NCBI GenBank assembly: GCA_047637995.1
Contig: JBLJBP010000055.1
Coordinates: 8,235 to 72,234, forward strand
Length of the DNA stretch: 64,000 nt
Direction: 5' to 3'
Source of the DNA: Kaistella sp.
Lineage (GTDB): Bacteria; Bacteroidota; Bacteroidia; Flavobacteriales; Weeksellaceae
Shown piece by piece: positions 36,450-58,396 of this stretch; position 1 is the first letter of the stretch; each line of letters begins with the position of its first letter. The notes under the pieces were generated by a model that searched no databases, had not been told where the DNA came from, and worked only from the letters and a program-made list of their open reading frames with translations. A program made the translations under genes and the position numbers.

Positions 36450-36875
36450 CTAATATAAATTTTCTTTTTCAGATTGGACAGGATAATTGATTAGGACTGC
36501 TTTATGTATTCCTTTGAACACGAATAAACTGCCAGCAGCAACACCAATTATTTTATGTTTTTTTGTTACTTTTTCTATATCAGCAAGGGAACCTGCACCA
36601 CCAAGAACCGTTAATGGAAGAGAGGTTCTGCTCCTAATGCCATCGATAAGTTCCATATCAAAACCTTTCATAACACCATCTTGGTCTATTGAATTAATTA
36701 AAATTTCGCCTGCGCCAAATTCTTGCGCTTTCTGGGCGAAGTCAAAAGGCTTGATCCCTTTACCTTTTTTACCATTGTGTGTAAAAACTTGACCGTTTAT
36801 AGGTGCCGGTATGGGTGCTATGAAGAGTACTCTTTTTTTGAATTTCATAGGGCTAGTGCTTTCTTTTAATGACAT
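36450..36875 (-). pseudogene. HisF/WbuZ-like cyclase, C-terminal half-barrel only (N-terminal half missing; ORF intact)
   Basis: 141 aa. FTHNGKKGKGIKPFDFAQKAQEFGAGEILINSIDQDGVMKGFDMELI...LTVLGGAGS aligns by eye to residues ~140-230 of the full-length paralog at 48993..49838. No sequence for strands 1-4 is present. The start ATG overlaps the upstream GT stop (TAATG). Confidence 0.55.
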
Positions 36876-42808: not shown

Positions 42809-44146
42809 TTAGGTCAGCACTTTCACAAGTTCTTCGTGAGTCTCTATGAGGATATTTTTTTTATTTCTAAGAAGAGGAAAAGACATCTCAACCCCCGGCA
42901 AATTTAGCAGAATAACTTTACAATCAAAAGCCGAAGCTTCAAAAAGTGCAGAAGAATATACCCCTAATACATATTTTGACTTTTTCAGCAAGACATACAT
43001 GGACTCTTCATTATTGATTAATTTAATATTTGAAGCGTTTGCAAACAGCTCTTGGAACTGCGCTATTACTTCTTCATTTTCGGCAGGATGCATTTTATAG
43101 AAGATCGTGAACTTTTCAAGTGACGAAGTATTTTCAGCTATAAAATTCATCATTTCCTTAGATCCGTAAGGCTGAGAAACTACTAAGAGCGTGCGCTCTC
43201 CAGTGGGAAGATTTTCTAATTTTTTCACCCATTTGTCAATATGTTCATTTTTCATGGGCTTTATATTGTGCGAAGGTAGTGGCAGTTTGCCAAAAAACAT
43301 TTCTACATTGTCCCAAATATAAAAAACATCAGGGAAATATTCTAACGAGTTTTCAGGGGTAAATGGGAAATTTGAGATTACGTCTTTATCGCTCATCAAG
43401 CCATGTTGCAGCTCATTAACCAAGATTTTATTTTTCTTAGCTGCATCAATCAGCGCAGGTTTATCACACGAATTTGTGAGATATATTTCTTTAGGTTTTT
43501 TCAGCTTAAAAAGTAAATAGTAGAGCCCAAATTCTGCTTTAAACTTTTTTATCTCTGTACTGAAAATACTCACAAGGTTGATTTTTACGCCAAATAATGT
43601 TGAAAGTTCTCCTGCAATCTGCGAAATTATTTGGGTATCTTTTTCAGAAAATCTGGTTTTTATAAATTTTTGTTTCAGTTGCGAAAATATAAAAATAAAA
43701 TCTAAATGTTTAATCTTGATGCTTCTTTTAAACATGGGTAAATCTAGATTATAATTTGTTTCGTAGCGAGTAAAAGAAACTTTTTTCTGTTCTAAGAATT
43801 GGGCAATATATTCTGTATAGATATCGATATAAGCATCTTCATCACGGTATTTTCTACCGCTTTCTATGATGAGTGCATTTTTTTGGGAGCAATCTAAGAA
43901 GGGGTTAAAAAACAGACAGTTTATAAATAATCTGTGCAGAATATTGGTGATTTTTTTTGGAAAAGTTTTAGTGTTAGGTTGTGCATTTCCGGGAATAGTG
44001 GCATCTACAATATGCAGAAAGATTGTGATTCTTGCGATTTGCCAAGGAAATACACCATTTATATTTAAGGAAAGTAGCTGGTGCTTATTTTCAAATTCCA
44101 AAAATTTTTGGGTAATTTCTGGGTAGGTGAATGGTGTGGAGTTCAT
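42809..44146 (-). CDS. Uncharacterised GT-B-like protein; candidate CMP-nonulosonate (legionaminic acid) transferase
   Basis: 445 aa. FYKMHPAE (H353-P354) followed 45 residues later by GVYSSALFEA (S398-S399, E403). This arrangement resembles the HP and SS CMP-binding motifs of bacterial sialyl/Kdo transferases. Confidence 0.4.
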   Translation of the reverse strand: MNSTPFTYPEITQKFLEFENKHQLLSLNINGVFPWQIARITIFLHIVDATIPGNAQPNTKTFPKKITNILHRLFINCLFFNPFLDCSQKNALIIESGRKYRDEDAYIDIYTEYIAQFLEQKKVSFTRYETNYNLDLPMFKRSIKIKHLDFIFIFSQLKQKFIKTRFSEKDTQIISQIAGELSTLFGVKINLVSIFSTEIKKFKAEFGLYYLLFKLKKPKEIYLTNSCDKPALIDAAKKNKILVNELQHGLMSDKDVISNFPFTPENSLEYFPDVFYIWDNVEMFFGKLPLPSHNIKPMKNEHIDKWVKKLENLPTGERTLLVVSQPYGSKEMMNFIAENTSSLEKFTIFYKMHPAENEEVIAQFQELFANASNIKLINNEESMYVLLKKSKYVLGVYSSALFEASAFDCKVILLNLPGVEMSFPLLRNKKNILIETHEELVKVLT

Positions 44147-44147
44147 C

Positions 44148-44657
44148 TTAGATTATAGTTTTAAACCTGAGTAGCTTGGCTGGTACCCCTCCCACAATAG
44201 CGAAAGCAGGCACATCCTTAGACACAACTGAATTTGCACCAATTATGCTATTATTACCTATAATAACTCCAGGTGAAATCACAACATTTGCACCAATCCA
44301 CACCGCATCTCCAATAATTATATCACCAATTTTTGGCAATATTTCTGCTTCATTATTATAATCGGCATCAACAATAGAAGATTGTGTCCATATATTAAAA
44401 CATGGTCCTATTTTGCAATTCTTACCTATTTTAATATTGCTATTTTCGGCTGCTTGTAAGATAGAAAACCTCCCAATGTAGGAGTTTTCATTTATGATAA
44501 TATTTCCTTCCCCATACATAAGAATATTATTTCCATTAAATATAAAAGTAGGATGTATGTCATATTTTGAACGATAAGTACTATATGCGTTTTGTTGCGC
44601 TATATCTAGTAAATAAAAGAAAAACTTACCTATAATTTTACTCAATAATTTTTTCAT
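44148..44657 (-). CDS. Hexapeptide-repeat sugar O-acetyltransferase
   Basis: Left-handed beta-helix repeats IGDAVWIGANVVISPGVIIGNNSIIGANSVVSKDVP. Length 169 aa. Confidence 0.8.
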   Translation of the reverse strand: MKKLLSKIIGKFFFYLLDIAQQNAYSTYRSKYDIHPTFIFNGNNILMYGEGNIIINENSYIGRFSILQAAENSNIKIGKNCKIGPCFNIWTQSSIVDADYNNEAEILPKIGDIIIGDAVWIGANVVISPGVIIGNNSIIGANSVVSKDVPAFAIVGGVPAKLLRFKTII

Positions 44658-45912
44658 AATTTTTTGTATGTGTTGCTTTATACGATAAGATTACTGCACT
44701 AAAGAGATTAAGAATATTAGCAAACAAGACACCTAATGCAACACCTACTATTTTATTTGTAAAGGCATGCACCCCCAGATAGGTTGAACCAATGATAATA
44801 ATTGTATAAAAAATTTGATAACTGTACATGTACTTCCAGCTCTTCATGCTCCACAAAATATTAACACCAATTACAGACCCTTTAACCATTCCTGCTATAA
44901 GAAGTATTTGAAGAACTTGTGTGCTTGCAGAATACTTTGGGAAAAATTGTTCTACTAAACTTGGAATCAAAAAATAGCCGATTATTACTAAAGGAGCCTG
45001 AATTAGCAATAAAACAAAAGTAATTTTTTTCATATAATGCCATAGCAAAAGCTTATCATTAAGTTTAGCATATGAATAGGTCATCTTAGGATATACATAA
45101 CTAGCTATAGATGAACTAAATAGCATGAATAGATTAAGGGAATATAATCCAAAAGTATAAAGACCGACCTGATCCAGATTTGTATATTTAATCAGCCAAA
45201 CTTTGTCTATAGTATTTACAGCAGAATCCATTAGAACGAGTACAAAAATAGGAAAGCCTACTTTTAAAATACTGCTAAACAATTTACCGTCCCAATAAAA
45301 CTTTGTTTTAATTGGTCTGAAAATATGGAGTAATATTACAAAAAACAATAAAGTGATTACTGCTTTCATAATCATACCATAGTAGGTAAAATAAATGACC
45401 AGAACTATCGAACATACATTGAATATAGCTTCATAGAACTGAAGTTTGGATAATTTTGTAAAGGAATTATTAGACCTATAAGTGGACATAAGGTAGGTTT
45501 GGTAAAATGTAAGAATTACAATACAAGTAATTCCCAAAATACCATATCGTAGCTTTTGGCTGTCACTAGGAAATACATAGAATAAAACTATTCCCGCAAT
45601 TAATACGAGGATAGATATTGCTAGTGTAAATGTTTTTGTGACAGCTGCTAATTTTTCAGCCTTTTTGTTGTCTCCCTTTCCATAGGCAAATGGCAACTCT
45701 AAACTTAGCCCATTTATAACACCACCTTGAATAAACACAGAATAAGTTAAAGCTAATGATAACGAACTCCATAAACCCAAATCTTCTGGAGACACATATT
45801 TGGCAATAATAAAGCCCACCAACATTGTAGCAAATGCTTTAATGATGGAACTAGATGAGTAGAGTACTGCTGTTTTATACTTATAAATCTGTTTACTTAT
45901 TCTTTCAATCAT
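44638..45912 (-). CDS. wzx: Polysaccharide repeat-unit flippase (Wzx, MOP superfamily)
   Basis: 424 aa, about 12 TM helices, typical polysaccharide-biosynthesis-protein N-terminus. Confidence 0.7.
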   Translation of the reverse strand: MIERISKQIYKYKTAVLYSSSSIIKAFATMLVGFIIAKYVSPEDLGLWSSLSLALTYSVFIQGGVINGLSLELPFAYGKGDNKKAEKLAAVTKTFTLAISILVLIAGIVLFYVFPSDSQKLRYGILGITCIVILTFYQTYLMSTYRSNNSFTKLSKLQFYEAIFNVCSIVLVIYFTYYGMIMKAVITLLFFVILLHIFRPIKTKFYWDGKLFSSILKVGFPIFVLVLMDSAVNTIDKVWLIKYTNLDQVGLYTFGLYSLNLFMLFSSSIASYVYPKMTYSYAKLNDKLLLWHYMKKITFVLLLIQAPLVIIGYFLIPSLVEQFFPKYSASTQVLQILLIAGMVKGSVIGVNILWSMKSWKYMYSYQIFYTIIIIGSTYLGVHAFTNKIVGVALGVLFANILNLFSAVILSYKATHTKNYEKIIE

Positions 45913-45915
45913 CGA

Positions 45916-47016
45916 TTAGTTTTTCAGAACCCATCGTTCTAGTTGATCTTTTTCAAATAGATCTGGATTGTATAATGGCTCTATAATTTTCCAAAATTCT
46001 TTTTCTGAATAGTTTAGAAATTCACAAAAATCTCTTACGGCCAGAGGGTCTAAAGCATGATCATGTTTTTTTACCAACTCAAATGCTTCTTCACGTGATA
46101 GCAAGCCATATCTTACCATTCTTGCAGCATAATCTGTAGCGGAGGCATGACCAAATTTGGGATATTTCATCCAAGAATGCACTAAATAGGCGCGGGTATC
46201 TATTTGGTCAAAATTTTCTATATGGTGCGTTCTATTCCACTCATGTGTCAAATCATGGAAGCCATGTTTTTTGGCAATTTCATAGTTTTTGAAACTGTTC
46301 CATTCTACGAAATAGCTCAGGTAGATGGGTTCTAAAGTAGCAATTTCTTCGGCTGTTGGTGGTTCAAAGAAATTGAGATCTTTGCGGCTCACCCCATTCT
46401 CTAATAATTCTTCGGTAGGAATACCTGCTCCTACTCCGTTATTGATTTGATCTTTTGCTGAATAGGTTTCTACAGCATTGTCTCCGCCATATTCATAGGC
46501 AACATTTTCCCCGTAAATGAGTAGTGGAGTATTAAATTTCACTGCCATGTGAAGCGGGTACGTATAGATATAGCGATCTACAAAATAAGTAGGTTTGCCA
46601 TATTTTTTAAAGGTGTAATTCATTGCGGCTTTTTGCGCTCTGATATTGGGTTTCATACTTATAATATCGCAACCGAAAGATTCTGAGATATTTTTCAAAT
46701 TGTGCATACCTGCATTTGTCATCGGGAAATTATCTTCTACCGTCACCAATAAAGGATTCATACCCAGCACTTCTTTAAACATATACACTTGGTAGTGACT
46801 GTCTTTTCCGCCGCTTACTGCAATCATGCAATCGTAACCATTTTCTCCGTTTCTTCCCCTGTGTTTGTCGCAAAGGGTTTTCAGCTCTTCAAACCTTTGT
46901 GGATAATTTGTTTGCTTTCTTCTTTCAAAAGATTGGCATGCAGAACATACGCCATGTTCGTTAAAAGAAATTCCTGGTCTAGTATCTGGCATTACGCAAA
47001 TTGAACAATATTTCAT
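45916..47016 (-). CDS. N-acetyl sugar amidotransferase (WbuX/WbpG/PseA family), paralog 1
   Basis: N-terminal Zn-ribbon CSIC...CSAC and PP-loop AVSGGKDSHYQ. Length 366 aa. Confidence 0.85.
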   Translation of the reverse strand: MKYCSICVMPDTRPGISFNEHGVCSACQSFERRKQTNYPQRFEELKTLCDKHRGRNGENGYDCMIAVSGGKDSHYQVYMFKEVLGMNPLLVTVEDNFPMTNAGMHNLKNISESFGCDIISMKPNIRAQKAAMNYTFKKYGKPTYFVDRYIYTYPLHMAVKFNTPLLIYGENVAYEYGGDNAVETYSAKDQINNGVGAGIPTEELLENGVSRKDLNFFEPPTAEEIATLEPIYLSYFVEWNSFKNYEIAKKHGFHDLTHEWNRTHHIENFDQIDTRAYLVHSWMKYPKFGHASATDYAARMVRYGLLSREEAFELVKKHDHALDPLAVRDFCEFLNYSEKEFWKIIEPLYNPDLFEKDQLERWVLKN

Positions 47017-47105: not shown

Positions 47106-48338
47106 TTAGTCATCTAAACCAGTTTTTGCGACATTGTGTCTAAGCTTCCATTGCCCTTCTTGATCTTTACCCCAAAGGTGCGGTGATCTAAATTGGTCAC
47201 AAAGTTGGTGAAAATATTCAGGTTCCATGTCTATATACTTCATAATTTCATCAAAGTACCGGTCTGGGAACTCCCCATCAAATCTATTGACCAATGCTAC
47301 ACCTTCCTCACGAGTAAGATGTCTATTTCTAATTTCTTGTGCGGCATCATAGCTAGCCCTTCCGATTCCAAATTTAATAAAAGTGGTATAGAAGTGCAGA
47401 TCATCGATCTTGTCATCAATCCCGCTGTACTTGCTAAAAGTGCCTTGTGTTCTATGTGGTCTTGCTTTGAAGCCTGTATTTTCTACCGCATAATAATACA
47501 CTTCTTGTGGCGTCCACTTGAGATAGTAGCCCAAATAATGCACCTCTATATTTGCCCGCTCCAGGTCTTCTAACTTAGGTGGAAGATAAGACATAAGATC
47601 ACTTAAGCGCACATCATATTTTTCTACGAGTTCTTTCACAGAAACGCCTGCTAAAAAGACCTCATCTAAATGCTCAAAACTATAGTAAGATTTATCACGA
47701 AGTGACGAAGTATTATCTGCCAATGGATTTCCATATTCTGCTTCGTTTTCTCCGTAGAATATTAGATTAATTCCGTGTTGAGCAGCAATCTTTGGGGCAA
47801 GGTTTTTTTGTCCTAAGATAAAGGTCTGGAAAGGATGTAAAAGGTTTTCAATAGAAAGTTTTGTCAGCAGCTTCATGACTTTCCCATTTCTATAGAAGGA
47901 GATATTATCAAAACCGCTATCTAACCAGTTTCTCCAGTTTTTCAAGCCATAGTCTGTGTACAAAATTGGGGGCCAAGTGACGGTAAGCGGATTCATTCCG
48001 TATTTGTACTTTAAAACATGCGCTTGGTAGGCACTGTCTTTTCCGCCGCTTCCTGGCACAAGACAGTCATAAGAGCCATCGTTTTTTCTATGTTTGTCTA
48101 AAAGTTTTACCAGTTCTTCTTCACGCATTCCCCAGTCTATACCATCTTTGATTTCTGCAGTTCGGCATGCATCACAAACGCCATGCTCATCAAAATTCAT
48201 GGTTGTTTTTTTACTTTCAATGGTGTGTTTAAATTCTACCGCAGAGGTAGGTCTTTGGTTAGACATTACACACTTGGTGCAAAATTTCACTTCCTGTGGC
48301 AGGCCATAGTATGCCTCGAGGTTATTATTTTCTGACAT
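47106..48338 (-). CDS. N-acetyl sugar amidotransferase (WbuX/WbpG/PseA family), paralog 2
   Basis: N-terminal Zn-ribbon CTKC...CDAC and PP-loop VPGSGGKDSAYQ. Length 410 aa. Clearly divergent from paralog 1. Confidence 0.85.
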   Translation of the reverse strand: MSENNNLEAYYGLPQEVKFCTKCVMSNQRPTSAVEFKHTIESKKTTMNFDEHGVCDACRTAEIKDGIDWGMREEELVKLLDKHRKNDGSYDCLVPGSGGKDSAYQAHVLKYKYGMNPLTVTWPPILYTDYGLKNWRNWLDSGFDNISFYRNGKVMKLLTKLSIENLLHPFQTFILGQKNLAPKIAAQHGINLIFYGENEAEYGNPLADNTSSLRDKSYYSFEHLDEVFLAGVSVKELVEKYDVRLSDLMSYLPPKLEDLERANIEVHYLGYYLKWTPQEVYYYAVENTGFKARPHRTQGTFSKYSGIDDKIDDLHFYTTFIKFGIGRASYDAAQEIRNRHLTREEGVALVNRFDGEFPDRYFDEIMKYIDMEPEYFHQLCDQFRSPHLWGKDQEGQWKLRHNVAKTGLDD

Positions 48339-48986
48339 TTAAAGGAGATTATTAGTTTGAGCCCAATTTTTATAAATAGATAGTCCTTTTGCTGCACTTT
48401 TTTCTGGATGAAATTGGGTAGCAAAAATACTTTTGTATGCTACGGCAGAGCAAAATTCTATCCCGTCATAATTTGTTAAAGTTAAAATACAAGAATCATT
48501 TTCTGGCTTCACAAAATAGGAATGGATAAAATACATAAAATCATTTTCTTCTAACTCTACAAGTGGCGTATTCTCCCAGTTTTGCTGTGCTGCATAGATT
48601 TTGTTCCAAGAGATGTGTGGTACTTTCACCACTTTCCCATTGAGGTCTGCAGGGAATTTTCTAATGACACCCGGTATGAGATTTAATCCTTTTCCGGCGC
48701 CAAACTCTTCACTTTCAGAAAACAGCATCTGCTGGCCTAAACAGATTCCGAACAAAGGGGTATCATTTGCAATTTTTTCTTTAATTGCGGTTTCTAAATC
48801 TAAGTGTCGCAGGTTGCTCATCCCCTCATTGAAAGCGCCTACACCTGGCAATACCAGTGCATCTGCATTGATAATATCTACGCGTTCTGAACTGACAATA
48901 GCGTTCATGCCCACGGTATCACATGCTTGTTTCACGCTAAACAAATTTCCTAATTTGTAATCGATGATTACTACTTTCTTTTTCAT
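48339..48986 (-). CDS. hisH: Imidazole glycerol phosphate synthase-type glutaminase subunit (WbuY-like)
   Basis: Class I glutamine amidotransferase with LPGVGAF, GICLGQQ (catalytic Cys) and QFHPEKS. Confidence 0.9.
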   Translation of the reverse strand: MKKKVVIIDYKLGNLFSVKQACDTVGMNAIVSSERVDIINADALVLPGVGAFNEGMSNLRHLDLETAIKEKIANDTPLFGICLGQQMLFSESEEFGAGKGLNLIPGVIRKFPADLNGKVVKVPHISWNKIYAAQQNWENTPLVELEENDFMYFIHSYFVKPENDSCILTLTNYDGIEFCSAVAYKSIFATQFHPEKSAAKGLSIYKNWAQTNNLL

Positions 48987-48992
48987 AATCTT

Positions 48993-49838
48993 TTAAAATC
49001 TACATGCTATCTGGTTTGCCAATAGTTCTTTTTTCACTTCTGAAATGCTGCAAGGCTCGAAGGTATGGAAATTTCTTTTTTGTTTTAAAAACTCTACATT
49101 TCCTTCTAGGTCAGAACCTTTGGTTTCATTTTCTTTTATATAATCATAGTGCAGAATTGAAGAGATCATTGCGGCTTGTGCCTTTCCATTTTTCAATATT
49201 TCTGCAACATGTTTTTTATTGCCTGCCCCTCCGTGCACGATCACTGGTATATTAACAAGACTGCTTATTTTGGTAACCAACTCATCATCAAAACCCTGGC
49301 CTGTACCTTCTCTATCTACAGAGGTAATAACTATTTCGCCTGCACCTAATTCATTGACTTTTTGTGCCCATTCAAATACGTCTATCCCGGTATATTCTCT
49401 CCCGTTATCTGTATAGGCAAGGTATTTCCCATCTTGTTCTTTAATTGCTTCTATAGCTACCACAATGGTGGAAGAGCCAAACATTCTGGAAGCATCCTTG
49501 ATGAGTTGTGGGTTTTTGATCGCTGCTGTATTGAGGCAAACTTTATCTGCCCCTACTCTCAACACTTCCTTAATATCTGAAATAGACCGGAGGCCACCAC
49601 CTACTGTGATGGGGATAAATATTTTTTTTACTGTTTCTGAGATGATGTCATGTAGGCTATTTCTTTCGTATAAAGATGCTACCACATCCATAAACATCAG
49701 TTCATCTGCACCTTGTTCATAATAGTATTTTGCAAAATCTGAGGGTTTCCCTAAAACCCTTAAACCTTCTAGATGAATTCCTTTCACCAAATTGGGACCC
49801 TTTATATCTAAGCGGGGGATTATTCTTACTGTATTCAT
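48993..49838 (-). CDS. hisF: Imidazole glycerol phosphate synthase-type cyclase subunit (WbuZ-like)
   Basis: RIIPRLDIKG, TVGGGLRS, ELGAGEIVITSVDREGT, VHGGAG. Has a long C-terminal extension (281 aa). Confidence 0.9.
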   Translation of the reverse strand: MNTVRIIPRLDIKGPNLVKGIHLEGLRVLGKPSDFAKYYYEQGADELMFMDVVASLYERNSLHDIISETVKKIFIPITVGGGLRSISDIKEVLRVGADKVCLNTAAIKNPQLIKDASRMFGSSTIVVAIEAIKEQDGKYLAYTDNGREYTGIDVFEWAQKVNELGAGEIVITSVDREGTGQGFDDELVTKISSLVNIPVIVHGGAGNKKHVAEILKNGKAQAAMISSILHYDYIKENETKGSDLEGNVEFLKQKRNFHTFEPCSISEVKKELLANQIACRF

Positions 49839-49847
49839 AGTTTAGTT

Positions 49848-50597
49848 TTAGATTGCGGTCCATCCTCCATCTACCATTAGGTTGTGTCCTGTGATAAATG
49901 AAGCATCATCTGAGAGCAGAAAAGAAATAGCAGGTGCCATTTCTTGAGGGTTCCCTAATCTTTTTAGCGGAGATTTCTCACTGTATTTTTTGATGAAAGA
50001 TGGATGCTGATTTTTTTCGTCTAATACGCCACCTGGTGACACACAATTTACCCTGATGTTATATTTTCCGTTATAGGACGCTAAATACCTAGAGAAATTG
50101 ATGACACCCCCTTTGATGGCTGCGTATGCTGCGGGAGAAGTTCCGCCATATTCTTCGTAGAGGGTAAAATCATTGCCTACTACTCCATAGATGGATGCAA
50201 TATTTACGATAGAACCAGAATTTTGTTCTTTCATGATTTCTATTGTTTTCTGACAAATTAAGAATACTGCATTGAGTTGCATATCTATATTTTCAACCCA
50301 AGATTCATACGGAATATCTTCAAATTTGGCGCCCCAGTCTGCAGTTCTGGGGTAAGCCAGATTTACCAAGCCGTCTATTCTTCCATATTTTTCAAAAACT
50401 GTTTGCAAAAGCTCTTCAATAGCTTTGGGCTGGGTGATATCGTAGTTTAAAAATAATGCTGCTTCAGAATCGAATGTGTTCAGATCTACAGCAATTACTT
50501 TTGCGCCGCAGGCTGCTAAATGTTTTAGAGATGCTCTACCGATGAGCCCACCTGCTCCGGTAAGAATGATGACTTTATTTTCTAATCCTGCATACAT
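49848..50597 (-). CDS. Short-chain dehydrogenase/reductase (PtmA-like)
   Basis: LTGAGGLIGRA, NIASIYG, YAAIKGG (YxxxK). Length 249 aa. Confidence 0.8.
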   Translation of the reverse strand: MYAGLENKVIILTGAGGLIGRASLKHLAACGAKVIAVDLNTFDSEAALFLNYDITQPKAIEELLQTVFEKYGRIDGLVNLAYPRTADWGAKFEDIPYESWVENIDMQLNAVFLICQKTIEIMKEQNSGSIVNIASIYGVVGNDFTLYEEYGGTSPAAYAAIKGGVINFSRYLASYNGKYNIRVNCVSPGGVLDEKNQHPSFIKKYSEKSPLKRLGNPQEMAPAISFLLSDDASFITGHNLMVDGGWTAI

Positions 50598-51499
50598 AGT
50601 CCTAAAATAGTATTTGCGTCAGTGATCGTGTTAAATGTCTTTTTATCCCTGACAATCTTTTCTATAAAAAATCTCATTTGTTCCGTATAGGTTTCAAGAA
50701 TTTTTTGCGAAGATGCAAATATACATTTACTTTCAAATTCTATAGTATTTTTTAGAAGATTAACAAGGTAGGTTCCACTATCTGTCACAATTTCCATTGT
50801 TCTTTTGCTATCTTTCCGATAATAATTTAATACAATAGAAACCTGAAAATCAGGGTAGCTCCAAAGATAATTAGCGTAATCTATTGCAGATATTTGTAAT
50901 GAAGAAACGCTAGAAAAAAAAGATCTTGTGGCACCGGGCGGACCAAAAAGCCAATAAACATAGTCTAACTCATGAATTAAATCTATATGGACGCCGCCGC
51001 CCATTTCTTTGTTTGCACTATATATTGTTCTGAAGTCTGTTCGAGGTCTCCAATCTGGGAGAAAGGAGCCACAATAGACATTTACTTCATTAATTCTTTT
51101 ATGTGCAATCAGGGTTTTTATTTCTTTGATTGCGTCTAAAAACCTGAGGTTACATGCAATGTAAGTAGGGATTTTCTGGTTTTCTATTTCTGCAACCAGT
51201 TGTTGTGTTTCTTCAGTTATTTCTGAAAAAAGAGGTTTTTCTATGAAAAGTGGTTTATTATATTTCGCTAATGTTCTGATGGAGTTGAAGTGTTCTGATG
51301 TAGGGTTGGATATTATCACAAAATCTATACTCTGCATATCTATTTCAGAGAGGCTGAGACAACTGATGGTGCTCTCTACTTCATTTATACTGCCTTTCCC
51401 GCTGCGCAACGCATAAATTTTTGCTTGCGCATCAATTTCCAAAATTGCTGAAATATGTTTTTTTGCAATGGAACCTAGTCCTACTATGAGCACATTCAT
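50582..51499 (-). CDS. Gfo/Idh/MocA-family oxidoreductase (PtmF-like)
   Basis: MNVLIVGLGSIAKKH Rossmann N-terminus and EKP motif (LFIEKPL). Length 305 aa. Confidence 0.75.
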   Translation of the reverse strand: MNVLIVGLGSIAKKHISAILEIDAQAKIYALRSGKGSINEVESTISCLSLSEIDMQSIDFVIISNPTSEHFNSIRTLAKYNKPLFIEKPLFSEITEETQQLVAEIENQKIPTYIACNLRFLDAIKEIKTLIAHKRINEVNVYCGSFLPDWRPRTDFRTIYSANKEMGGGVHIDLIHELDYVYWLFGPPGATRSFFSSVSSLQISAIDYANYLWSYPDFQVSIVLNYYRKDSKRTMEIVTDSGTYLVNLLKNTIEFESKCIFASSQKILETYTEQMRFFIEKIVRDKKTFNTITDANTILGLCMQD

Positions 51500-51504
51500 T
51501 TCAC

Positions 51505-52233
51505 CTAATATTTAAAATCAAAATCCAGTTTTTTATTTTCAATTAAGTAAGACATCAGTTCGAAATCAATCTGATGGTCTAAATCAAAACACAAGTGTGG
51601 TACTTCATAAACAATACTTTTATCTGTGATAACAGTTTTATACTTCTGTTCAAAAAATTGTTTTTTGAAAATATAAAACGAAGCATTCATATCATATACC
51701 CGAGGTGCAGATTGACGCGTAAGAAACTCTCCTTTTTTGCAAAGCGCTACAAAACCGTCAGGCGTTTCTTCCACCATATTGAAATAGGGATTTCTATTTG
51801 CTGGGCTTACTGAAAATAAATTAAGCGCTGCACTGTTTCCAAATAGAATGTTAATAGAATTTCCTAAATCTTGGGCAGTTCTCAGCGGTGAAGTCACATC
51901 TAAATCTATCACAAAATCATAGGTAACGTTGTTTTTTGCTTCGGCAAATCTGTAAACATCTTCTATGGCATCTAATTTTCCGGCGGTATCACTGGCCAAA
52001 AATTCTGGTCTGGTATAAGACAAATCCACATTTTGAATAGCTAAAGCTGCAACAACATTTTTAATTTGGGCTGAATCTGTGGACAAAAACACATCTAAAT
52101 CATATTTTTGGCTAAGCTCTAAAGCCACCTCTAAAGAGTAAGAAATGAGCGGCTTGCCCCTGATTTCCTTTATGTTCTTACCAGGAACTCCTTTAGAACC
52201 TCCTCTTGCACAGATTGTTATAAGGCCTTTCAT
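51505..52233 (-). CDS. legF: CMP-nonulosonate synthetase (acylneuraminate cytidylyltransferase family; LegF/PtmB-like)
   Basis: ICARGGSKGVPGKNIKEIRGKPLISYS. Length 242 aa. Confidence 0.8.
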   Translation of the reverse strand: MKGLITICARGGSKGVPGKNIKEIRGKPLISYSLEVALELSQKYDLDVFLSTDSAQIKNVVAALAIQNVDLSYTRPEFLASDTAGKLDAIEDVYRFAEAKNNVTYDFVIDLDVTSPLRTAQDLGNSINILFGNSAALNLFSVSPANRNPYFNMVEETPDGFVALCKKGEFLTRQSAPRVYDMNASFYIFKKQFFEQKYKTVITDKSIVYEVPHLCFDLDHQIDFELMSYLIENKKLDFDFKY

Positions 52234-52237
52234 TTTA

Positions 52238-53290
52238 CTAAAGTTTTATGTGTTTGATGTCTTCCTGGGCTTTCTTGTAATCTTCATGTTTGCCAATATC
52301 TAACCAATATCCATTAATAGGATAGGTAATGAGTTTTAAATTCATTTCTAAAACTTTTTCCATTAGATCTGTGATGTCATAAAATTCATCGTGGGGAATC
52401 ATTCTTAGCAATTTCTTGTTCATAATATAAATTCCCGCATTAGAATAATAGGTATATCTCGGCTTTTCTTTAAGAGATTTTACCTCGGCGCCATTTTCAC
52501 CTATTTCTAGAACCGCGTAGGGCACATCCACATGATAAGATGTGGTAGCTACTGCCATATCTGCATTAGAATCCTGATAGGTTTTGAAGAAATCTGAAAA
52601 ATCTATATTGGTAAGCAAATCACTATTCATCACAATAATGTCTTCATTTTCAAAATCCGGCACCAGCAATACAGACCCAATAGTACCTAAAGGTTTTTCT
52701 TCTTTTACATATCTGATATCTACATCTTTTTGTGTGCCATCACCAAAATAATCTTCTAACTGCTCTCCTAGATAGTTGATGCTTAAATTTATTTTTTTAA
52801 TACCGAAATTAATTAATCTATCTATGTTGTACTCTATTATAGGTTTTTCTCCTACTTTCAGAAGGGGTTTGGGGGTCTTATCAGTTAGTGGTCTCAATCT
52901 TTTTCCTTCGCCACCCGCCATCAGCACTGCATCTGCTGGAATCAGGCTAGTACGAAAATTGAAATCTAAAATATCTACGATCACCAAATCCTCATCAACA
53001 ATAGGAATTATTTTTATTAAATCATTTCTAAATTTGTCTAATTGTTTAAGATCATATTGATTTAATTTAATATAAATTGGGTTAGGCTGTACAAAACTCA
53101 GAAGCTGATCTTCAAAGCCAAGTCCCTTGATGAAACCTCTGCGTAAGTCTCCATCTGTGAGCGATCCTAAGAGTTTTCGGTTTTCATCTACCACAAATAG
53201 TATAGAAGATGGTGCTATTTCGTCTAATTTAATGAGTGCATCGCGCACTGTTTTTCCGTGGTAAATGATGTGCTTTTCAACAATGTTCAT
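52238..53290 (-). CDS. ptmE: CBS-domain nucleotidyltransferase (PtmE/LgaF-like sugar-1-phosphate nucleotidyltransferase)
   Basis: N-terminal CBS pair (LGSLTDGDLRR), then MAGGEGKRLRPLTDKTPKPLL. Length 350 aa. Confidence 0.8.
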   Translation of the reverse strand: MNIVEKHIIYHGKTVRDALIKLDEIAPSSILFVVDENRKLLGSLTDGDLRRGFIKGLGFEDQLLSFVQPNPIYIKLNQYDLKQLDKFRNDLIKIIPIVDEDLVIVDILDFNFRTSLIPADAVLMAGGEGKRLRPLTDKTPKPLLKVGEKPIIEYNIDRLINFGIKKINLSINYLGEQLEDYFGDGTQKDVDIRYVKEEKPLGTIGSVLLVPDFENEDIIVMNSDLLTNIDFSDFFKTYQDSNADMAVATTSYHVDVPYAVLEIGENGAEVKSLKEKPRYTYYSNAGIYIMNKKLLRMIPHDEFYDITDLMEKVLEMNLKLITYPINGYWLDIGKHEDYKKAQEDIKHIKL

Positions 53291-54441
53291 GGCAAATTAT
53301 AAAAAGTCTTTATGGAAGATATATTTTCATTTTCCATTATTTTGTTTAATATGATTTTGGAGGCACCTAGATTATCATACGGATTCTCCAGTGACACCAG
53401 TTTATTCTGAAATTCTTGATCTTTCAGCTTTTCAAAGGCTGCTGCAATTTCATACTCGGAATTGCCGGTGTTGATAACGCTTTCTGCCTGGATTCTTCCT
53501 TTTTGTCTGTCACCGATATTTATGGTGGCTGTATTTAGAGATGGTGCTTCCACTATACCACTTGAGCTATTTCCTACAATGGCATCACAAACTTTAACCA
53601 TTGACAAAAATCTCAATGTTCCCAATGAGCTATACGCTTTTCCTAATTCCGGATATTTATTAACAAAATCGTCAATCATTTGATTGATGATTCTGCCGTC
53701 TGTATCCGCATTTGCTTTGGTAAATATAAAGAAACTATCTTTTTGAGTACGGACTACATTGAGCAGATTTTGAAATTGCTGCGCAGATGAAATGCTCCCT
53801 AAGGTTTCTGGATGAAAAGTAATCTGATAATTGTATTTTTTAAATTGAATATTAAGATCTTCTTGCAATTGGTCTTTGGTAAGAAGTGTGAGTTCACGTA
53901 TATTATCTAAGCCAATAGCCCCAACATTGTAAACATTTTCAGGACTTTCTCCCAACTGAATTACGCGTTTTCTATAGGCTTCAGTAGAAGTAAAATGCAA
54001 ATGACTAAGTTTAGTAATGGCGTGTCTTATTGCATCATCATAAGCACCTTCAGTGATTTCTCCTCCGTGCAAATGTGCGATAGGAATTTTAAAAATTGTA
54101 GCTGCCGACACAATAGCAAGCATTTCATATCGATCTCCTAATATCACAATAAGATCTGGGCTTAGTCTGGAAAAAACATCTGCTAAATTGATCATTGCCA
54201 AACCCATTGTTTTGCAGACACTTGCAGAAGTATCAGAAGACAATAGTATTTCAACTTTTTCATTGATGGGAAAACCATCATCAAGAATGGATTTGTAGGT
54301 AAGACCAAACTCAGGGGACAGGTGTGCGCCTGTAGCGATGATCTGCAGTTCTAATTGTTCCGAATCTTTTATTAACTGCATCAAAGGTTTAAGCAGACCA
54401 TATTCTGCGCGCGTTGCAGTGATGACACAAATCTTCCTCAT
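53287..54441 (-). CDS. legG: NDP-sugar hydrolysing 2-epimerase (NeuC/LegG type)
   Basis: MRKICVITATRAEYGLLKPL, LGDRYE, HLHGGE. Length 384 aa. Confidence 0.85.
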   Translation of the reverse strand: MRKICVITATRAEYGLLKPLMQLIKDSEQLELQIIATGAHLSPEFGLTYKSILDDGFPINEKVEILLSSDTSASVCKTMGLAMINLADVFSRLSPDLIVILGDRYEMLAIVSAATIFKIPIAHLHGGEITEGAYDDAIRHAITKLSHLHFTSTEAYRKRVIQLGESPENVYNVGAIGLDNIRELTLLTKDQLQEDLNIQFKKYNYQITFHPETLGSISSAQQFQNLLNVVRTQKDSFFIFTKANADTDGRIINQMIDDFVNKYPELGKAYSSLGTLRFLSMVKVCDAIVGNSSSGIVEAPSLNTATINIGDRQKGRIQAESVINTGNSEYEIAAAFEKLKDQEFQNKLVSLENPYDNLGASKIILNKIMENENISSIKTFYNLP

Positions 54442-55448
54442 AGCACTATCAAATCATCTTGTGAAAAATCTCTTTTTGCTTGATTACCTAAAACAAGATC
54501 CCAATTCATTGGAGAAATGCCGGTTCCTGGTCTTTTTACAGCTAAATTGTCTTCAGAGAATACCGTTCCTTTTTCAATATCTTTCTTTGCTACAATACTT
54601 TTCCGTGCGATTTCTATATTTTTCATTTCAGAAGCGCTTGGTTTTTTAATTCCATCACCAGAAATGGCTTGTTCAATATTTCGAATAGCAGCTACCATCT
54701 TTTTTAGTTCAGAAGGATCTAAAGAGGCGGCATGATCTGGCCCTTCCATCGTTTTGTCTAACGTGAAATGTTTTTCAATTATGGCTGCACCTAATGCAAC
54801 AGCCGCTACTGGAACTTCAATACCTAAAGTATGATCTGAATAACCTACTGCAGTACCGAATTTTTGCTGAATCGTTAGCATTGCCTTCAGGTTTACATCA
54901 GCCATTGGTGTAGGATATTCTGTATTGCAGTGAAGAATAGTAATATCTTCTTTTGTTTTATTTTCTTGTAAAAAAACGTGTATTGCTGCTTCAATATCTT
55001 CCATAGTACACATTCCGGTGGAGAGAATTACTTTGCTGAAAAGCTGGGCTGCTTTCCTTAGGTAAGGCAAATTAGTAATTTCCCCGGATGGAATTTTCAC
55101 CATATCTAAGCCTATTTCTTTGAGGTATGCTAAAGATTCTAAATCAAATGCAGTTGAAAAGAATTGAATATTTTTTAGTTTACAGTAGTCTGTTAGTTTC
55201 TGATGATCCTGATGAGAAAGTTCTAATTTCTGAAGCATCTCTAACTGTGTATCTTCTGAATTTCCGGTATTTTTAATTTGGTAGTCCGCTTTTTTGGCTG
55301 ATTTAGAAACTAAACTTTCTGCTTTGAAGGTTTGAAATTTCACATAATCTACGCCTGCTTCCACAGCGGCATCTATCAGCATAAAGGCATTTTCTAAACT
55401 CCCGTTATGGTTCACACCTGCTTCAGCAATAATTTCAACTTTTGTCAT
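54438..55448 (-). CDS. legI: Nonulosonic acid synthase (NeuB/LegI type)
   Basis: IIAEAGVNHNGS, KFQT, and a C-terminal SAF domain. Length 336 aa. Confidence 0.85.
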   Translation of the reverse strand: MTKVEIIAEAGVNHNGSLENAFMLIDAAVEAGVDYVKFQTFKAESLVSKSAKKADYQIKNTGNSEDTQLEMLQKLELSHQDHQKLTDYCKLKNIQFFSTAFDLESLAYLKEIGLDMVKIPSGEITNLPYLRKAAQLFSKVILSTGMCTMEDIEAAIHVFLQENKTKEDITILHCNTEYPTPMADVNLKAMLTIQQKFGTAVGYSDHTLGIEVPVAAVALGAAIIEKHFTLDKTMEGPDHAASLDPSELKKMVAAIRNIEQAISGDGIKKPSASEMKNIEIARKSIVAKKDIEKGTVFSEDNLAVKRPGTGISPMNWDLVLGNQAKRDFSQDDLIVL

Positions 55449-56074
55449 TTAATAAGTTTTTGTGCGGGATTTCCCACCCAGATTTCATTTTCAGGAATGT
55501 CTTTCAGTACTACACTACCAGCTCCTATGATGACGTTCCTACCTATAGATGTTCCTTGTTTGATGAAAGAGTTACCACCTACAAAAGAATTTTCGCCTAC
55601 CGTTACATTTCCTGCTAAAACAGCACCTGGTCCTATATGAACTCCATTTTCAATACTGCATTCATGCTCGATAATACTTGCGGTATTGATGATGCAATTA
55701 TTTGCAATCTGCACAAAAGCATTTATCGCAACATTAGCACCTATGAAATTTCCTACACCAAATTTCGTATAATTACTTAAAACTGAAGCAGGATGAATAA
55801 TATTTAACAATTTCTTATTTTTCTGCAAAATCAGTTGAGCGACTTTCTGCCGGATTGCGTTGTCTCCTATTCCCAGAATATAGGCATCTGCAATATTCCA
55901 GTTAAAAGCATCACTACCTTCGTCTCCTAGGTACTGAAGGTCAAAGGGATTATTTGGAGCTTGTTCTTTTTCGCAATAAAAGTTCGTGTGCAGTCCCATA
56001 AGTTTTGCTGCATCTAAAACAACAAAAGAATGGCCAGAGTAGCCAATAATTGCTATGTTAGATTTATCTGGCAC
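55445..56074 (-). CDS. legH: Amino-sugar N-acetyltransferase (PglD/NeuD/LegH type)
   Basis: N-terminal IAIIGYSGHSFVVLDAA plus C-terminal hexapeptide repeats. Length 209 aa. Confidence 0.8.
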   Translation of the reverse strand: MPDKSNIAIIGYSGHSFVVLDAAKLMGLHTNFYCEKEQAPNNPFDLQYLGDEGSDAFNWNIADAYILGIGDNAIRQKVAQLILQKNKKLLNIIHPASVLSNYTKFGVGNFIGANVAINAFVQIANNCIINTASIIEHECSIENGVHIGPGAVLAGNVTVGENSFVGGNSFIKQGTSIGRNVIIGAGSVVLKDIPENEIWVGNPAQKLIK

Positions 56075-57206
56075 TGCTGGGTATGTTTACAATTCGTTCT
56101 TCTAAGAACTCTGCATTTTTTTGTGCATCGCGTTGGCAAGAGGCATACATAGGGAGTCTGTACATGAGCGTCCAGATTGGCCTCGTCATTACTGCATTAT
56201 CATTAGTAGCCTTGAGAAAGGCATCTCTTTCTGCTCTATTTTCAAGTTCTATGCACATTAGCCAGTAGTTTGCTTTAGTTTCTGGTGTTTCCTGCCGAAA
56301 TTTTATTCCTACACCAGAGAAAAAGCTGGCATATTTTTCTGCTAATATTCTTTTGTCTGCTAAAAACTCGGTTAAGGTTTCTAACTGTGCGCAGACTAAA
56401 GCTGCATTTAGGTTTGGCATTCTAAAATTATAGCCTATTTCATCATGAAAGAACTCATAGGGATGTGGTCTTTTAGCAGTAGTAGTAAGGTATTTAGCTC
56501 TAGTACCCAATTGCAACTCATTGGTGATTATAGCGCCTCCCCCGCCACTGGTTACCACTTTATTTCCATTAAAGGAAAAACCTGATATCAGCCCAACTGT
56601 TCCGGTATGCTTTCCTTTATAGTAACTTCCCAAAGATTCTGCAGCGTCTTCCACTAAAGGTATTTGCCAATTTTCACAAATGCACATTAATTCATCTAGA
56701 TGCGCAGGAAAGCCGAAAGTATGCATGGGCATGCAAGCGGCAATACGTTTTCCGGTAGCTTTATTGTAGCAACCATTTTCTCTTAGCTCACCAAATTCTT
56801 CTAAAAATTCTTCTAAAGCTTTCGGAGAAAGCCCCATTGTATCTAAATCTACATCGATAAAAACTGGAACTGCCCTATTGTAGGAAATAGCATTAGCAGT
56901 TGCAATGAAAGTAAGGGCTTGTGTGATAACCTCGTCTCCATCTTTTACTCCAGCTAACTGAAGGGCTATTTGCAAAGATGCAGAACCGTTAACCACTGCT
57001 ACTGCTTTCTGTGCACCAGTAAACTGCTGCATCATGCTTTCAAACTGATCTACAAAAGCGCCAACAGAAGATACAAAAGTAGAATCTATGGTTTCTAACA
57101 GATATTTCTTTTCATTACCCCTAAATCTAGGCTCATGCAGAGGAATGAATTTTTCTGTGTTATAATGGTCTCTAACAAACTTGACCATCTGCTGAGTATA
57201 ATCCAT
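56064..57206 (-). CDS. legC: DegT/DnrJ/EryC1-family PLP aminotransferase (LegC type)
   Basis: DAAESLGS, and FSFNGNKVVTSGGGGAI containing the PLP lysine. Length 380 aa. Confidence 0.85.
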   Translation of the reverse strand: MDYTQQMVKFVRDHYNTEKFIPLHEPRFRGNEKKYLLETIDSTFVSSVGAFVDQFESMMQQFTGAQKAVAVVNGSASLQIALQLAGVKDGDEVITQALTFIATANAISYNRAVPVFIDVDLDTMGLSPKALEEFLEEFGELRENGCYNKATGKRIAACMPMHTFGFPAHLDELMCICENWQIPLVEDAAESLGSYYKGKHTGTVGLISGFSFNGNKVVTSGGGGAIITNELQLGTRAKYLTTTAKRPHPYEFFHDEIGYNFRMPNLNAALVCAQLETLTEFLADKRILAEKYASFFSGVGIKFRQETPETKANYWLMCIELENRAERDAFLKATNDNAVMTRPIWTLMYRLPMYASCQRDAQKNAEFLEERIVNIPSSAR

Positions 57207-57208
57207 AC

Positions 57209-58396
57209 TTACATTTTTGAGTCTAAATATTTGCCGGTTTCTTTATGTCCAAAGTTAGGAATCATTTTGTGAAATAGCGTTACTATTTCTTCTTTGCTCC
57301 AGTTTCTGCTTGCTTTCAAGGTATCTATAGTTTCTTCAAAAAGCTGAAGTTTATCCTGCTCTATTTTAAGGCTATTTTTTATCACTCCAAAATTTTCAAA
57401 CCTATCCATATCTAAGATTTCATTGTCAGTATAGAACTCTTCAAAATCTTTTTCGCCGGTAGTATCGCTTTCTGTGAAAAGACATGGCCATTTTCCCTGT
57501 TTGGATAACGCATCTACTTTTTGCCGAGCTTCTTCTTCATTTTGGCAGAGATAAGGCTCATATCCTATTTCTTGGAGGAATTTTACTGCGATTTCTGCAA
57601 ATGTGATTAGGTGCAGGCTTTCACTGAGTTTAGGAAAAAAAATGTCTCTATTCTCGCCAAAGATACAAGACATTAAACACAACTCTCCTGATTCTTTAGG
57701 AATCACAAAATACCGTTTGATATCGTTGGGTGCTACTATTGGCTGTCTTTTCTCAATTCTTTTATTAAAACCATGTAGTAGTGACCCGTCTGAGAACGCT
57801 ACATTAGCAAATCGTGCGGTAGAAATACTAATTTCACTGCTTTTTCTCATTAGAAACATCTCCATTATTCTTTTAGAAGCTCCCATCATATTGACAGGGT
57901 TGGCTGCTTTATCCGTGGAGACACAAAAATATTTCTTAACTCCTTTATCAATGGATTGTTGCAATGTTTTATCTGTATTAAAAATGTTCACATTAATCAT
58001 TCGCATTAATGTATAGGGATCTTTTTCACTACGGACATGCTTCAATGCCGAGAGATTGAGAACATAGTCATATTGCCCGTCTGCTTCCCAGAAAACATCA
58101 TATTCTAAAGAACCTATATCTAATGCAAAGGTTCTAAAATCTCCATCTATATAGCCGTATGAACTACGAATATCGCGCACCAGCTCTACCATATTGTTTT
58201 CACTAATATCTACAACATGCAGTTTTTTCGGATTTCGTTTAAATAGTTCTTTGGTAGTTGCAGCACCTATGGAACCGGCCCCACCTATTACTAAGAATGC
58301 ACTATTTGCAACAATTTCTTGTAAATTATTTTCATGCTTGAAAATATCTGCTTCAAACAATTCTTCTGTTCTCCCTATCAAACCAAGAATATTCAT
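57209..58396 (-). CDS. legB: Soluble CapD-family NDP-HexNAc 4,6-dehydratase (LegB/LgaA-like)
   Basis: VIGGAGSIGAATT, MGASKRIME. 395 aa with no TM region. Confidence 0.75.
   Translation of the reverse strand: MNILGLIGRTEELFEADIFKHENNLQEIVANSAFLVIGGAGSIGAATTKELFKRNPKKLHVVDISENNMVELVRDIRSSYGYIDGDFRTFALDIGSLEYDVFWEADGQYDYVLNLSALKHVRSEKDPYTLMRMINVNIFNTDKTLQQSIDKGVKKYFCVSTDKAANPVNMMGASKRIMEMFLMRKSSEISISTARFANVAFSDGSLLHGFNKRIEKRQPIVAPNDIKRYFVIPKESGELCLMSCIFGENRDIFFPKLSESLHLITFAEIAVKFLQEIGYEPYLCQNEEEARQKVDALSKQGKWPCLFTESDTTGEKDFEEFYTDNEILDMDRFENFGVIKNSLKIEQDKLQLFEETIDTLKASRNWSKEEIVTLFHKMIPNFGHKETGKYLDSKM

Follow-up and report, generated by a model that had tools for sequence, protein, structure and literature searches.

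Which nonulosonic acid is made by the nine-gene cassette at positions 49848–58396 of a 64,000-nucleotide (nt) stretch of Kaistella sp. DNA (GenBank assembly GCA_047637995.1, contig JBLJBP010000055.1, positions 8,235 to 72,234 of the forward strand; hereafter, the window)? The region is exactly filled by nine minus-strand open reading frames (ORFs; lengths in Table 1), whose junctions are gaps of 2–5 nt or overlaps of 4–16 nt, so tight that we take the nine genes to be one translationally coupled operon segment. Families were assigned with Pfam and NCBIfam models and their curated cut-offs, and structural relatives were sought by searches of the PDB. The assignments agree one for one with the order proposed in an initial annotation made from the sequence alone: dehydratase, aminotransferase, N-acetyltransferase, NeuB-like synthase, NeuC-like hydrolysing 2-epimerase, nucleotidyltransferase with a CBS domain, cytidine monophosphate (CMP)-nonulosonate synthetase, Gfo/Idh/MocA oxidoreductase (hereafter, Gfo) and short-chain dehydrogenase/reductase (SDR). 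We present evidence that this is a legionaminic-family pathway and consider that its predicted product has a slightly better than even chance of being CMP-8-epi-legionaminic acid, which we favour over plain legionaminic acid.

The initial annotation had argued for a legionaminic acid (Leg) rather than a pseudaminic acid (Pse) or N-acetylneuraminic acid (Neu5Ac) product, and the family assignments bear it out. The LegC, NeuD, NeuB and NeuC models all score above their curated cut-offs, and the PseB, PseC and PseI models all remain far under theirs: the PseC model gives the aminotransferase 184 bits (cut-off 423), and the PseI model gives the synthase 290 bits as compared to the 501 bits of TIGR03569. 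Model searches found neither PseG nor PseH among the nine cassette proteins. The best characterised homologues belong to neither Pse nor Neu5Ac systems; they are Leg or 8-epi-legionaminic acid (8eLeg) genes of Escherichia coli O161, O61 and O108, Aliivibrio fischeri ES114 and Acinetobacter. We found the E. coli O-antigen loci with a DNA search of complete genomes of that species; going by the flippase labels of the NCBI annotation pipeline (PGAP), L002 is of the O161 family and L003 of the O61 family, L004 is probably O108, and L017 is A. fischeri ES114. Both O61 and O108 carry 5,7-diacetamido-8-epi-legionaminic acid (8eLeg5Ac7Ac), O161 carries the 5-N-acetyl-7-N-alanyl derivative Leg5Ac7Ala (PMC7685785, PMC3628348), and the O-antigen of ES114 contains 8eLeg (PMC7940393).

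Six of the nine window proteins are 34–78% identical to their counterparts in these chemically defined loci. The dehydratase is the most conserved (74–78% to the O61, O108, O161 and ES114 enzymes; E = 2.6e-210 against PDB entry 3pvz, annotated as a UDP-N-acetylglucosamine (UDP-GlcNAc) 4,6-dehydratase), followed by the aminotransferase (54–57% to Elg2/Lea2 of the E. coli loci and the ES114 counterpart), the synthase (49–55% to Elg4/Lea4 and the ES114 counterpart) and the 2-epimerase (47–52%), so that the Elg and Lea proteins and their ES114 equivalents lie at 47–78% for these steps. The PtmE-like nucleotidyltransferase (34–36% to Elg6/Lea6 and VF_0145) and the CMP-synthetase complete the six. 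The acetyltransferase, with a PglD_N domain and hexapeptide repeats, is 25–30% identical to the acetyltransferases of the E. coli and A. fischeri loci. The top structural match of the NeuC-type enzyme is an Acinetobacter baumannii GDP/UDP-N,N'-diacetylbacillosamine 2-epimerase (hydrolysing) (5xvs/5zlr, E = 9e-101); the nearest structures to the aminotransferase are 7b0m, then perosamine synthetases, and then 1o61. Judged by orthology to chemically defined Leg and 8eLeg loci, the cassette is a legionaminic-family (Leg/8eLeg) biosynthesis pathway.

The choice between Leg and 8eLeg turns on the last three genes, which directly follow the PtmE-like gene. Their order is that of elaB (CMP-synthetase), elaA (Gfo/Idh/MocA) and elaC (SDR) in A. 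baumannii KL49 (PMC13656337). In that species, lgaABCDEFG leads to Leg5Ac7Ac, and lgaABCDEF together with elaABC to 8eLeg5Ac7Ac (PMC9676051). Loss of any one of elaA, elaB and elaC abolishes the capsule; ElaA was proposed to oxidise the C8 hydroxyl of CMP-Leg and ElaC to reduce the resulting ketone from the opposite face, based on crystal structures and docking (PMC13656337). The initial annotation had offered epimerisation at C8 by the two trailing oxidoreductases as an alternative; it coincides with this published proposal, and we now rate it the more likely reading.

The window proteins retain the catalytic residues of ElaA and ElaC, together with most of the contact residues predicted by docking. 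Neither the window Gfo, CMP-synthetase and SDR nor the E. coli O61 Gfo matched an ElaA, ElaB or ElaC entry when searched against the PDB; E. coli O61 and A. fischeri proteins served as proxies for transferring the residue numbering. In the alignment, ElaA residues K91 and H181 (catalytic) and, including the predicted N-acetyl pocket, W155, R156, L179, L120 and Y282 correspond to K88, H176, W150, R151, L174, L118 and Y271 of the window Gfo; I148 has become C, and M281 is absent. ElaC residues S145, Y147, Y157, P165, Y168, K172, Q205, F209 and Y213 correspond to S135, Y137, Y147, P155, Y158, K162, Q197, F201 and Y205 of the window SDR, in which the extended loop (ElaC V150–P165) is of equal length; Y97, M164 and I156 are replaced by W, S and L, respectively.

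We compared the cassette with those of other genomes, denoting dehydratase, LegC, acetyltransferase, NeuB, NeuC, PtmE-like protein, CMP-synthetase, Gfo and SDR by D, C, H, I, G, E, F, O and S. A genome scan with a Gfo alignment yielded 561 relatives. Arrangements were taken from the best 80, all of them closer to E. coli O61 than would be expected of proteins from Campylobacter or Acinetobacter; neither PtmF/PtmA nor ElaA/ElaC sequences occur among these 80. About 70 of the 80 species have a proteobacterial arrangement, D-C-G-I-(H)-E-O-F-S, and five Bacteroidota loci have D-C-(H)-I-G-E-F-O-S. Elizabethkingia meningoseptica and Flavobacterium notoginsengisoli carry the identical nine genes in identical order; in Capnocytophaga ochracea and Olivibacter, the order is the same and the acetyltransferase is divergent or missing. 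The E. meningoseptica locus (GCA_053902405.2) matches that of the window gene for gene from Wza through to the first gene for a family 4 glycosyltransferase (GT4), the nine cassette proteins being 59–82% identical. The closest relative of the window Gfo is 69% identical. RimO of the window (22283–23587) shares 86–91% identity with proteins of Halpernia, Riemerella, Bergeyella, Chryseobacterium and Epilithonimonas, which places the window in a lineage of the Weeksellaceae (Flavobacteriales). Because the same order recurs in other Bacteroidota, the cassette is real and conserved, and not a chance arrangement.

A metagenome scan with the PtmE-like protein brought up further Bacteroidota-type cassettes that have the D-C-(H)-I-G-E core in common (PtmE-like proteins 46–81% identical) and differ in what follows it. 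Where the PtmE-like protein reaches 66–81% identity, all eight cassettes with Gfo and SDR have a CMP-synthetase of the window type (49–73% identical), whereas in all those lacking the pair the synthetase is of another type, 29–38% identical to that of the window; two sampled synthetases of the latter kind are 41–47% identical to those of E. coli O161 and L001. Similarly, Gfo and SDR occur in the E. coli O61, O108-like and ES114 loci, and the O161 locus has a CMP-synthetase alone. On this pattern of gene content, synthetase, Gfo and SDR are one unit that is swapped for a lone synthetase, like lgaG versus elaBAC. Percentage identity was discarded as a link between the window synthetase and the proteobacterial ElaB type, as the values (33–36%, versus 32% to the O161 type) do not separate the two; co-occurrence alone carries that link.

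The existence of near-identical cores with and without Gfo and SDR implies that precursor supply can do without the pair. This speaks against the "first segment" role of PtmA in the Campylobacter scheme conveyed by the Plesiomonas paper (PMC4481668), and favours action on the finished sugar; it argues that the tail is an exchangeable, product-level module rather than a part of precursor supply. As the synthetase is always exchanged together with Gfo and SDR, the pattern further suggests that epimerisation might occur on free Leg, before activation by an 8eLeg-specific synthetase, as a variant of the published order.

The same collections contain other arrangements. In a third metagenomic variant (L093, 8047–10849; L103, 8052–10821; L112), the core is followed by another CMP-synthetase, a class-III aminotransferase and an SDR that is 71–73% identical to the window SDR, and there is no Gfo; such a cassette may introduce an additional amino group into the nonulosonate. 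Four other metagenomic loci (L092, L095, L097 and L099) have an extra gene between those for the PtmE-like protein and the CMP-synthetase, encoding an Acyl_transf_3 acyltransferase, a hexapeptide transferase or a BNR/sialidase-like protein; no extra gene is present there in the window. In E. coli ECZP248 (NZ_CP034784.1; O108-like locus L004), the SDR is annotated as two overlapping pieces (18825–19130 and 19073–19588), which suggests a frameshift, and fnlABC lie just downstream of the 8eLeg genes.

The pathway that we propose would run as follows. The dehydratase would convert nucleoside diphosphate (NDP)-GlcNAc to the 4-keto-6-deoxy sugar, the LegC-type enzyme would install an equatorial 4-amino group, and the NeuD/PglD-type enzyme would acetylate it. 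The NeuC-type enzyme would then strip off the nucleotide and invert C2, after which NeuB would condense the product with phosphoenolpyruvate to 5,7-diacetamido-legionaminic acid, to be activated to its CMP form by the cytidylyltransferase. The last three gene products would act like ElaB, ElaA and ElaC, with Gfo oxidising the C8 hydroxyl and the SDR reducing it from the other face to yield the 8-epimer. Finally, the products of HisF-, HisH- and WbuX-type genes downstream would turn at least one N-acetyl group, whichever its position, into an acetamidino group.

These last genes extend the unit beyond position 49848, where the initial annotation had let it end: four putative acetamidino-forming genes follow directly, encoding a HisF-like protein, HisH and two WbuX paralogues, a and b (Table 1). 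The paralogues are 30% identical to one another, and either is 23–25% identical (paralogue a 25%) to WbuX of E. coli O145, which belongs to a wbuX-hisH-wbuZ-fnlABC set of the N-acetimidoylfucosamine (FucNAm) type. The HisF-like protein (49–70% identical) and paralogue a (59–74%) have relatives beside nonulosonate cassettes in five loci (L060, L064, L078, L086 and L121); relatives of paralogue a, HisF and HisH adjoin cassettes without fnlBC within the fetched flanks of 7–10 kb, and one such cassette lacks Gfo and SDR. Paralogue b is 81% identical to the product of the gene right after that for the SDR in C. ochracea, and 71% identical to a protein encoded within the Stutzerimonas stutzeri and Marinobacter cassette. 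Because their clades adjoin nonulosonate cassettes without nearby fnl genes, both paralogues look aimed at the nonulosonate, which likely carries at least one acetamidino group. In the gammaproteobacterium Marinomonas piezotolerans (L040, 15527–19408), hisH and hisF are followed by two divergent WbuX paralogues beside a nonulosonate cassette, so the two-WbuX arrangement recurs independently.

A separate 141-aa ORF (36450–36875, minus strand), directly upstream of fnlA, matches only the C-terminal half of the AglZ/HisF2 (WbuZ) model (positions 139–247 of 248). With E. coli O145 WbuZ, which holds the same position there, it shares 44.5% identity; going by this resemblance, it is probably the relic of a lost L-FucNAm module.

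Several points weigh against the 8-epimer as the product. We know of no sugar structure for any Bacteroidota strain bearing this cassette, and Campylobacter reportedly (McNally 2007; Schoenhofen 2009) makes Leg of the D-glycero-D-galacto configuration despite having homologues of the two oxidoreductases. The window Gfo, SDR and CMP-synthetase are just 26–37% identical to their counterparts in 8eLeg producers (E. coli O61/O108 and ES114), the Gfo itself 26–32%. An identity of 46% to the Plesiomonas homologue is reported for PtmF of Campylobacter coli, which is thus nearer to the Vibrio/E. coli type than is the window Gfo. The window SDR scores 233.6 bits with PRK09186 (NF006619), the model of the Vibrio/E. 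coli type, missing the cut-off of 255, as compared to 350–387 bits for the SDRs of E. coli O61, ES114 and C. ochracea. Support for the activities of ElaA and ElaC themselves consists of genetics, crystal structures and docking, with no enzyme assay (PMC13656337).

The initial annotation had likened the SDR to Campylobacter PtmA. This likeness needs correction: the PtmA model (NF050062) gives 154 bits, well under its cut-off of 350 and less than PRK09186 does. Its model scores make the window SDR distantly related to both types, somewhat nearer to PRK09186. The best solved SDR relative, 6uh2 (36% identical), proved equally distant from all lineages.

The strongest competitor is Leg proper (D-glycero-D-galacto), again as an acetamidino derivative, with Gfo and SDR in a PtmF/PtmA-like role that does not invert C8, for instance one in precursor supply or some side reaction. 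Campylobacter, a reported Leg producer, has ptmE-ptmF-legF-ptmA; the assignment of PtmA to the first, GDP-GlcNAc segment in the Plesiomonas paper (PMC4481668) and the distance of the window tail proteins from those of proven 8eLeg producers point the same way. On the other hand, near-identical D-C-H-I-G-E cores occur whether or not the pair is present, most of the substrate-contact residues predicted for ElaA/ElaC are conserved, and the pair tracks the 8-epimer in all chemically defined pairs within a species (E. coli O161 versus O61/O108; A. baumannii lgaG versus elaABC). We therefore hold plain Leg to be possible but doubtful, and retain 8eLeg as the preferred product.

Some other isomer or derivative (4-epi, 7-epi or acinetaminic-type, keto- or amino-modified, or an undescribed, doubly amidinated nonulosonate) is quite unlikely. 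In its favour, the Bacteroidota Gfo and SDR form a lineage of their own, with a best outside match of 26–37%; the SDR of the third variant partners a class-III aminotransferase rather than Gfo, so that this SDR lineage is not confined to a single reaction; and a single HisH/HisF pair is common to two cassette-linked WbuX paralogues. Yet acinetaminic modules require four aci genes and are of different make-up, and the conservation of the ElaA/ElaC residues favours the same regiochemistry. The 4-epi isomer, which the initial annotation had entertained beside the 8-epi, is improbable since isolates with 4-epi-legionaminic acid are reported to be without Leg genes (PMC5595891). That the sugar is an undescribed nonulosonate, either a Leg or 8eLeg with acetamidino groups at both N5 and N7 or one in which Gfo and SDR would set a stereocentre other than C8, has, from the gene content, a small chance. 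For the doubly amidinated form speak the two WbuX paralogues, each of a clade linked to nonulosonate cassettes, with one HisH/HisF pair between them, and the reduction of the fnl-linked FucNAm-type set to a relic. We know of no precedent for a nonulosonate with two acetamidino groups.

Pse or Neu5Ac as the product is effectively refuted already: the matching NeuB equivalog model does carry the name N-acetylneuraminate synthase, and a Pse synthase (8h2c, E = 9e-58) tops the structural matches of NeuB, but only because the searched PDB set lacks a LegI structure, and against this stand the missing PseG and PseH, the low scores of the Pse models, the orthology to Leg/8eLeg loci and a dehydratase, aminotransferase and acetyltransferase that would be superfluous for Neu5Ac.

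The PtmE-like protein had been taken as a possible sign of the GDP-linked route. Among the best 80 of the 561 Gfo relatives, its gene is part of the cassette in almost every locus; both Legionella loci (L058 and L066) lack it along with the long dehydratase, and in these Gfo, CMP-synthetase and SDR genes come after those for NeuB and NeuC and neither of the two is found within 10 kb. Perosamine synthetases, near structural relatives of the LegC-type enzyme, use GDP-sugars, which is a hint only. The best models and structures for the PtmE-like protein are a mix of guanylyl-, uridylyl- and thymidylyltransferases. According to the Tannerella forsythia study, PtmE of C. jejuni is specific for GTP, and the LegB homologue of T. 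forsythia takes GDP-GlcNAc only (PMC5378307). The latter enzyme belongs with the short LegB of Campylobacter (gene length 972 bp in C. jejuni), unlike the 395-aa dehydratase of the window; on sequence evidence, the carrier may be either GDP or UDP.

Amongst known systems, A. baumannii KL49 (lgaABCDEF with elaB-elaA-elaC; 8eLeg5Ac7Ac capsule) is the one that shares both the nine enzyme types and the order of the tail, which there too replaces a lone CMP-synthetase as one unit. Both loci moreover have fnlABC, a WbpV-like gene and a gene for a WbpL-like initiating transferase. They differ in the order of the middle genes, and the window adds the four acetamidino genes; the tail identity of 26–37% was gauged via the E. 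coli O61 and A. fischeri proxies. All nine functions are also present in the elg loci of E. coli O61/O108 and in VF_0140–0148 of ES114, where the dehydratase is 75–78%, LegC 54–57%, NeuB 49–51% and NeuC 47–49% identical, but the tail order is Gfo, CMP-synthetase, SDR and the acetyltransferase gene comes after NeuB.

The C. jejuni/C. coli genes legI-legG-ptmE-ptmF-legF-ptmA provide 5-acetamidino-7-acetamido-legionaminic acid (Leg5Am7Ac) on flagellin by a GDP-linked route. These same six enzyme types occur in the window in nearly the same order, and both loci have WbuX/PseA-family amidotransferase genes nearby. However, Campylobacter has the short LegB, set apart by length and type from the 395-aa Polysacc_synt_2 dehydratase of the window, which is that of Vibrio, E. 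coli and Acinetobacter, and it glycosylates flagellin, whereas the window locus targets a polysaccharide. Of the near match to both the C. jejuni block and the Acinetobacter lga module that had been proposed, the enzyme types stand; the tail order is that of KL49 rather than of C. jejuni, and the dehydratase is not the short LegB.

The Leg locus of T. forsythia FDC 92A2/UB4, from the same phylum, has homologues of PtmE, LegG, LegI and LegF, and its GDP-linked route was shown biochemically (PMC5378307). There, a BFO_1060-family protein is the candidate transferase, and the window candidate weakly matches that family. Its LegB is 62% identical to that of Campylobacter, hence of another dehydratase type than the window's; no Gfo or SDR homologue figures among the seven nonulosonate genes tabulated there, and the glycan is protein-linked.

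The cassette sits within a long co-directional polysaccharide locus, at about 25.8–63.7 kb of the window. Upstream are genes for a PglF/WbpM-like protein, Wza and Wzc. Downstream, after the acetamidino genes, come those for Wzx, a hexapeptide acyltransferase, a polysialyltransferase/BFO_1060-like protein and Wzy, followed by GT4 enzymes, fnlABC, a WbpV-like epimerase/reductase, a WbpL-like initiating transferase and the rml genes. The best explanation is that the nine genes form the sugar-nucleotide portion of a locus for a Wzx/Wzy-dependent capsule or O-antigen. Their GC content (0.35–0.38) is the same as that of the flanks, and the composition of 49848–58396 gives no sign of recent horizontal transfer. 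The polysialyltransferase-like gene product, for which the PDB search found no solved relative, is the putative nonulosonate transferase, as we infer from its family matches.

Two further ORFs of the locus, both on the minus strand, deserve mention. Between fnlA and fnlB, a 140-aa ORF (34979–35401) shows a weak cupin match (FdtA/WxcM C-terminal) and has no homologue in the fetched loci. At the end of the polysaccharide locus, the rml set is split by an ORF6N/Rha-type phage regulatory gene (26762–27640) inserted between rmlB (27765–28844) and rmlA (25825–26685).

Table 1. Genes of the nonulosonate cassette and selected downstream genes, with window coordinates and the models that support their assignment.
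Feature	Length (aa)	Position	Strand	Model evidence and remarks
NDP-GlcNAc 4,6-dehydratase, Elg1/Lea1/LgaA type	395	57209..58396	(-)	PF02719 Polysacc_synt_2
LegC-family 4-aminotransferase	380	56064..57206	(-)	TIGR04181, 542 bits (cut-off 420)
N-acetyltransferase, NeuD/PglD type, predicted LegH role	209	55445..56074	(-)	TIGR03570, 196 bits (cut-off 161); GTG start
Nonulosonate synthase, NeuB/LegI type	336	54438..55448	(-)	TIGR03569, 501 bits (cut-off 400)
Hydrolysing NDP-sugar 2-epimerase, NeuC/LegG type	384	53287..54441	(-)	TIGR03568, 473 bits (cut-off 236)
CBS + sugar-1-phosphate nucleotidyltransferase, PtmE/LgaF/Elg6 type	350	52238..53290	(-)	PF00483 and weak CBS
CMP-nonulosonate synthetase (ElaB position)	242	51505..52233	(-)	PF02348 (CTP_transf_3)
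Gfo/Idh/MocA oxidoreductase, distant member of the ElaA/PtmF/WeiH family	305	50582..51499	(-)	PF01408 and PF22725
SDR, distant member of the ElaC/PtmA family	249	49848..50597	(-)	adh_short_C2; overlaps Gfo gene by 16 nt
HisF/WbuZ-like cyclase subunit		48993..49838	(-)	WbuZ model, 269.5 bits (cut-off 299.7); HisF model, 269 bits (cut-off 294.6)
HisH-like glutaminase subunit		48339..48986	(-)	TIGR01855, 202 bits (cut-off 105)
N-acetyl sugar amidotransferase, WbuX paralogue a	410	47106..48338	(-)	TIGR03573, 348 bits (cut-off 203)
N-acetyl sugar amidotransferase, WbuX paralogue b	366	45916..47016	(-)	TIGR03573, 355 bits (cut-off 203)
Wzx-type flippase		44638..45912	(-)	PF13440; syntenic in E. meningoseptica
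Candidate nonulosonate transferase		42809..44146	(-)	PF07388, polysialyltransferase-like, 36.7 bits (cut-off 23.3)
Wzy-type repeat-unit polymerase		41544..42794	(-)	TIGR04370, 34.9 bits (slightly under cut-off 40)

Nonulosonic acids mimic host sialic acids, and serotype, phage receptors and immune recognition are determined by them. The organism of the window and E. meningoseptica have a complete locus of the Leg/8eLeg type, whose composition equals that of A. baumannii K49 (8eLeg, L-N-acetylfucosamine (L-FucNAc), and GlcNAc or N-acetylquinovosamine (QuiNAc)). A cassette of this kind has already been described and is very widespread, so that the finding in the window is sound but ordinary. More useful than the window itself is the comparative result that CMP-synthetase, Gfo and SDR behave as a single exchangeable unit in Bacteroidota, Acinetobacter and E. 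coli. It raises the question of whether epimerisation precedes activation; such an order would account for the exchange of the synthetase along with the two oxidoreductases.

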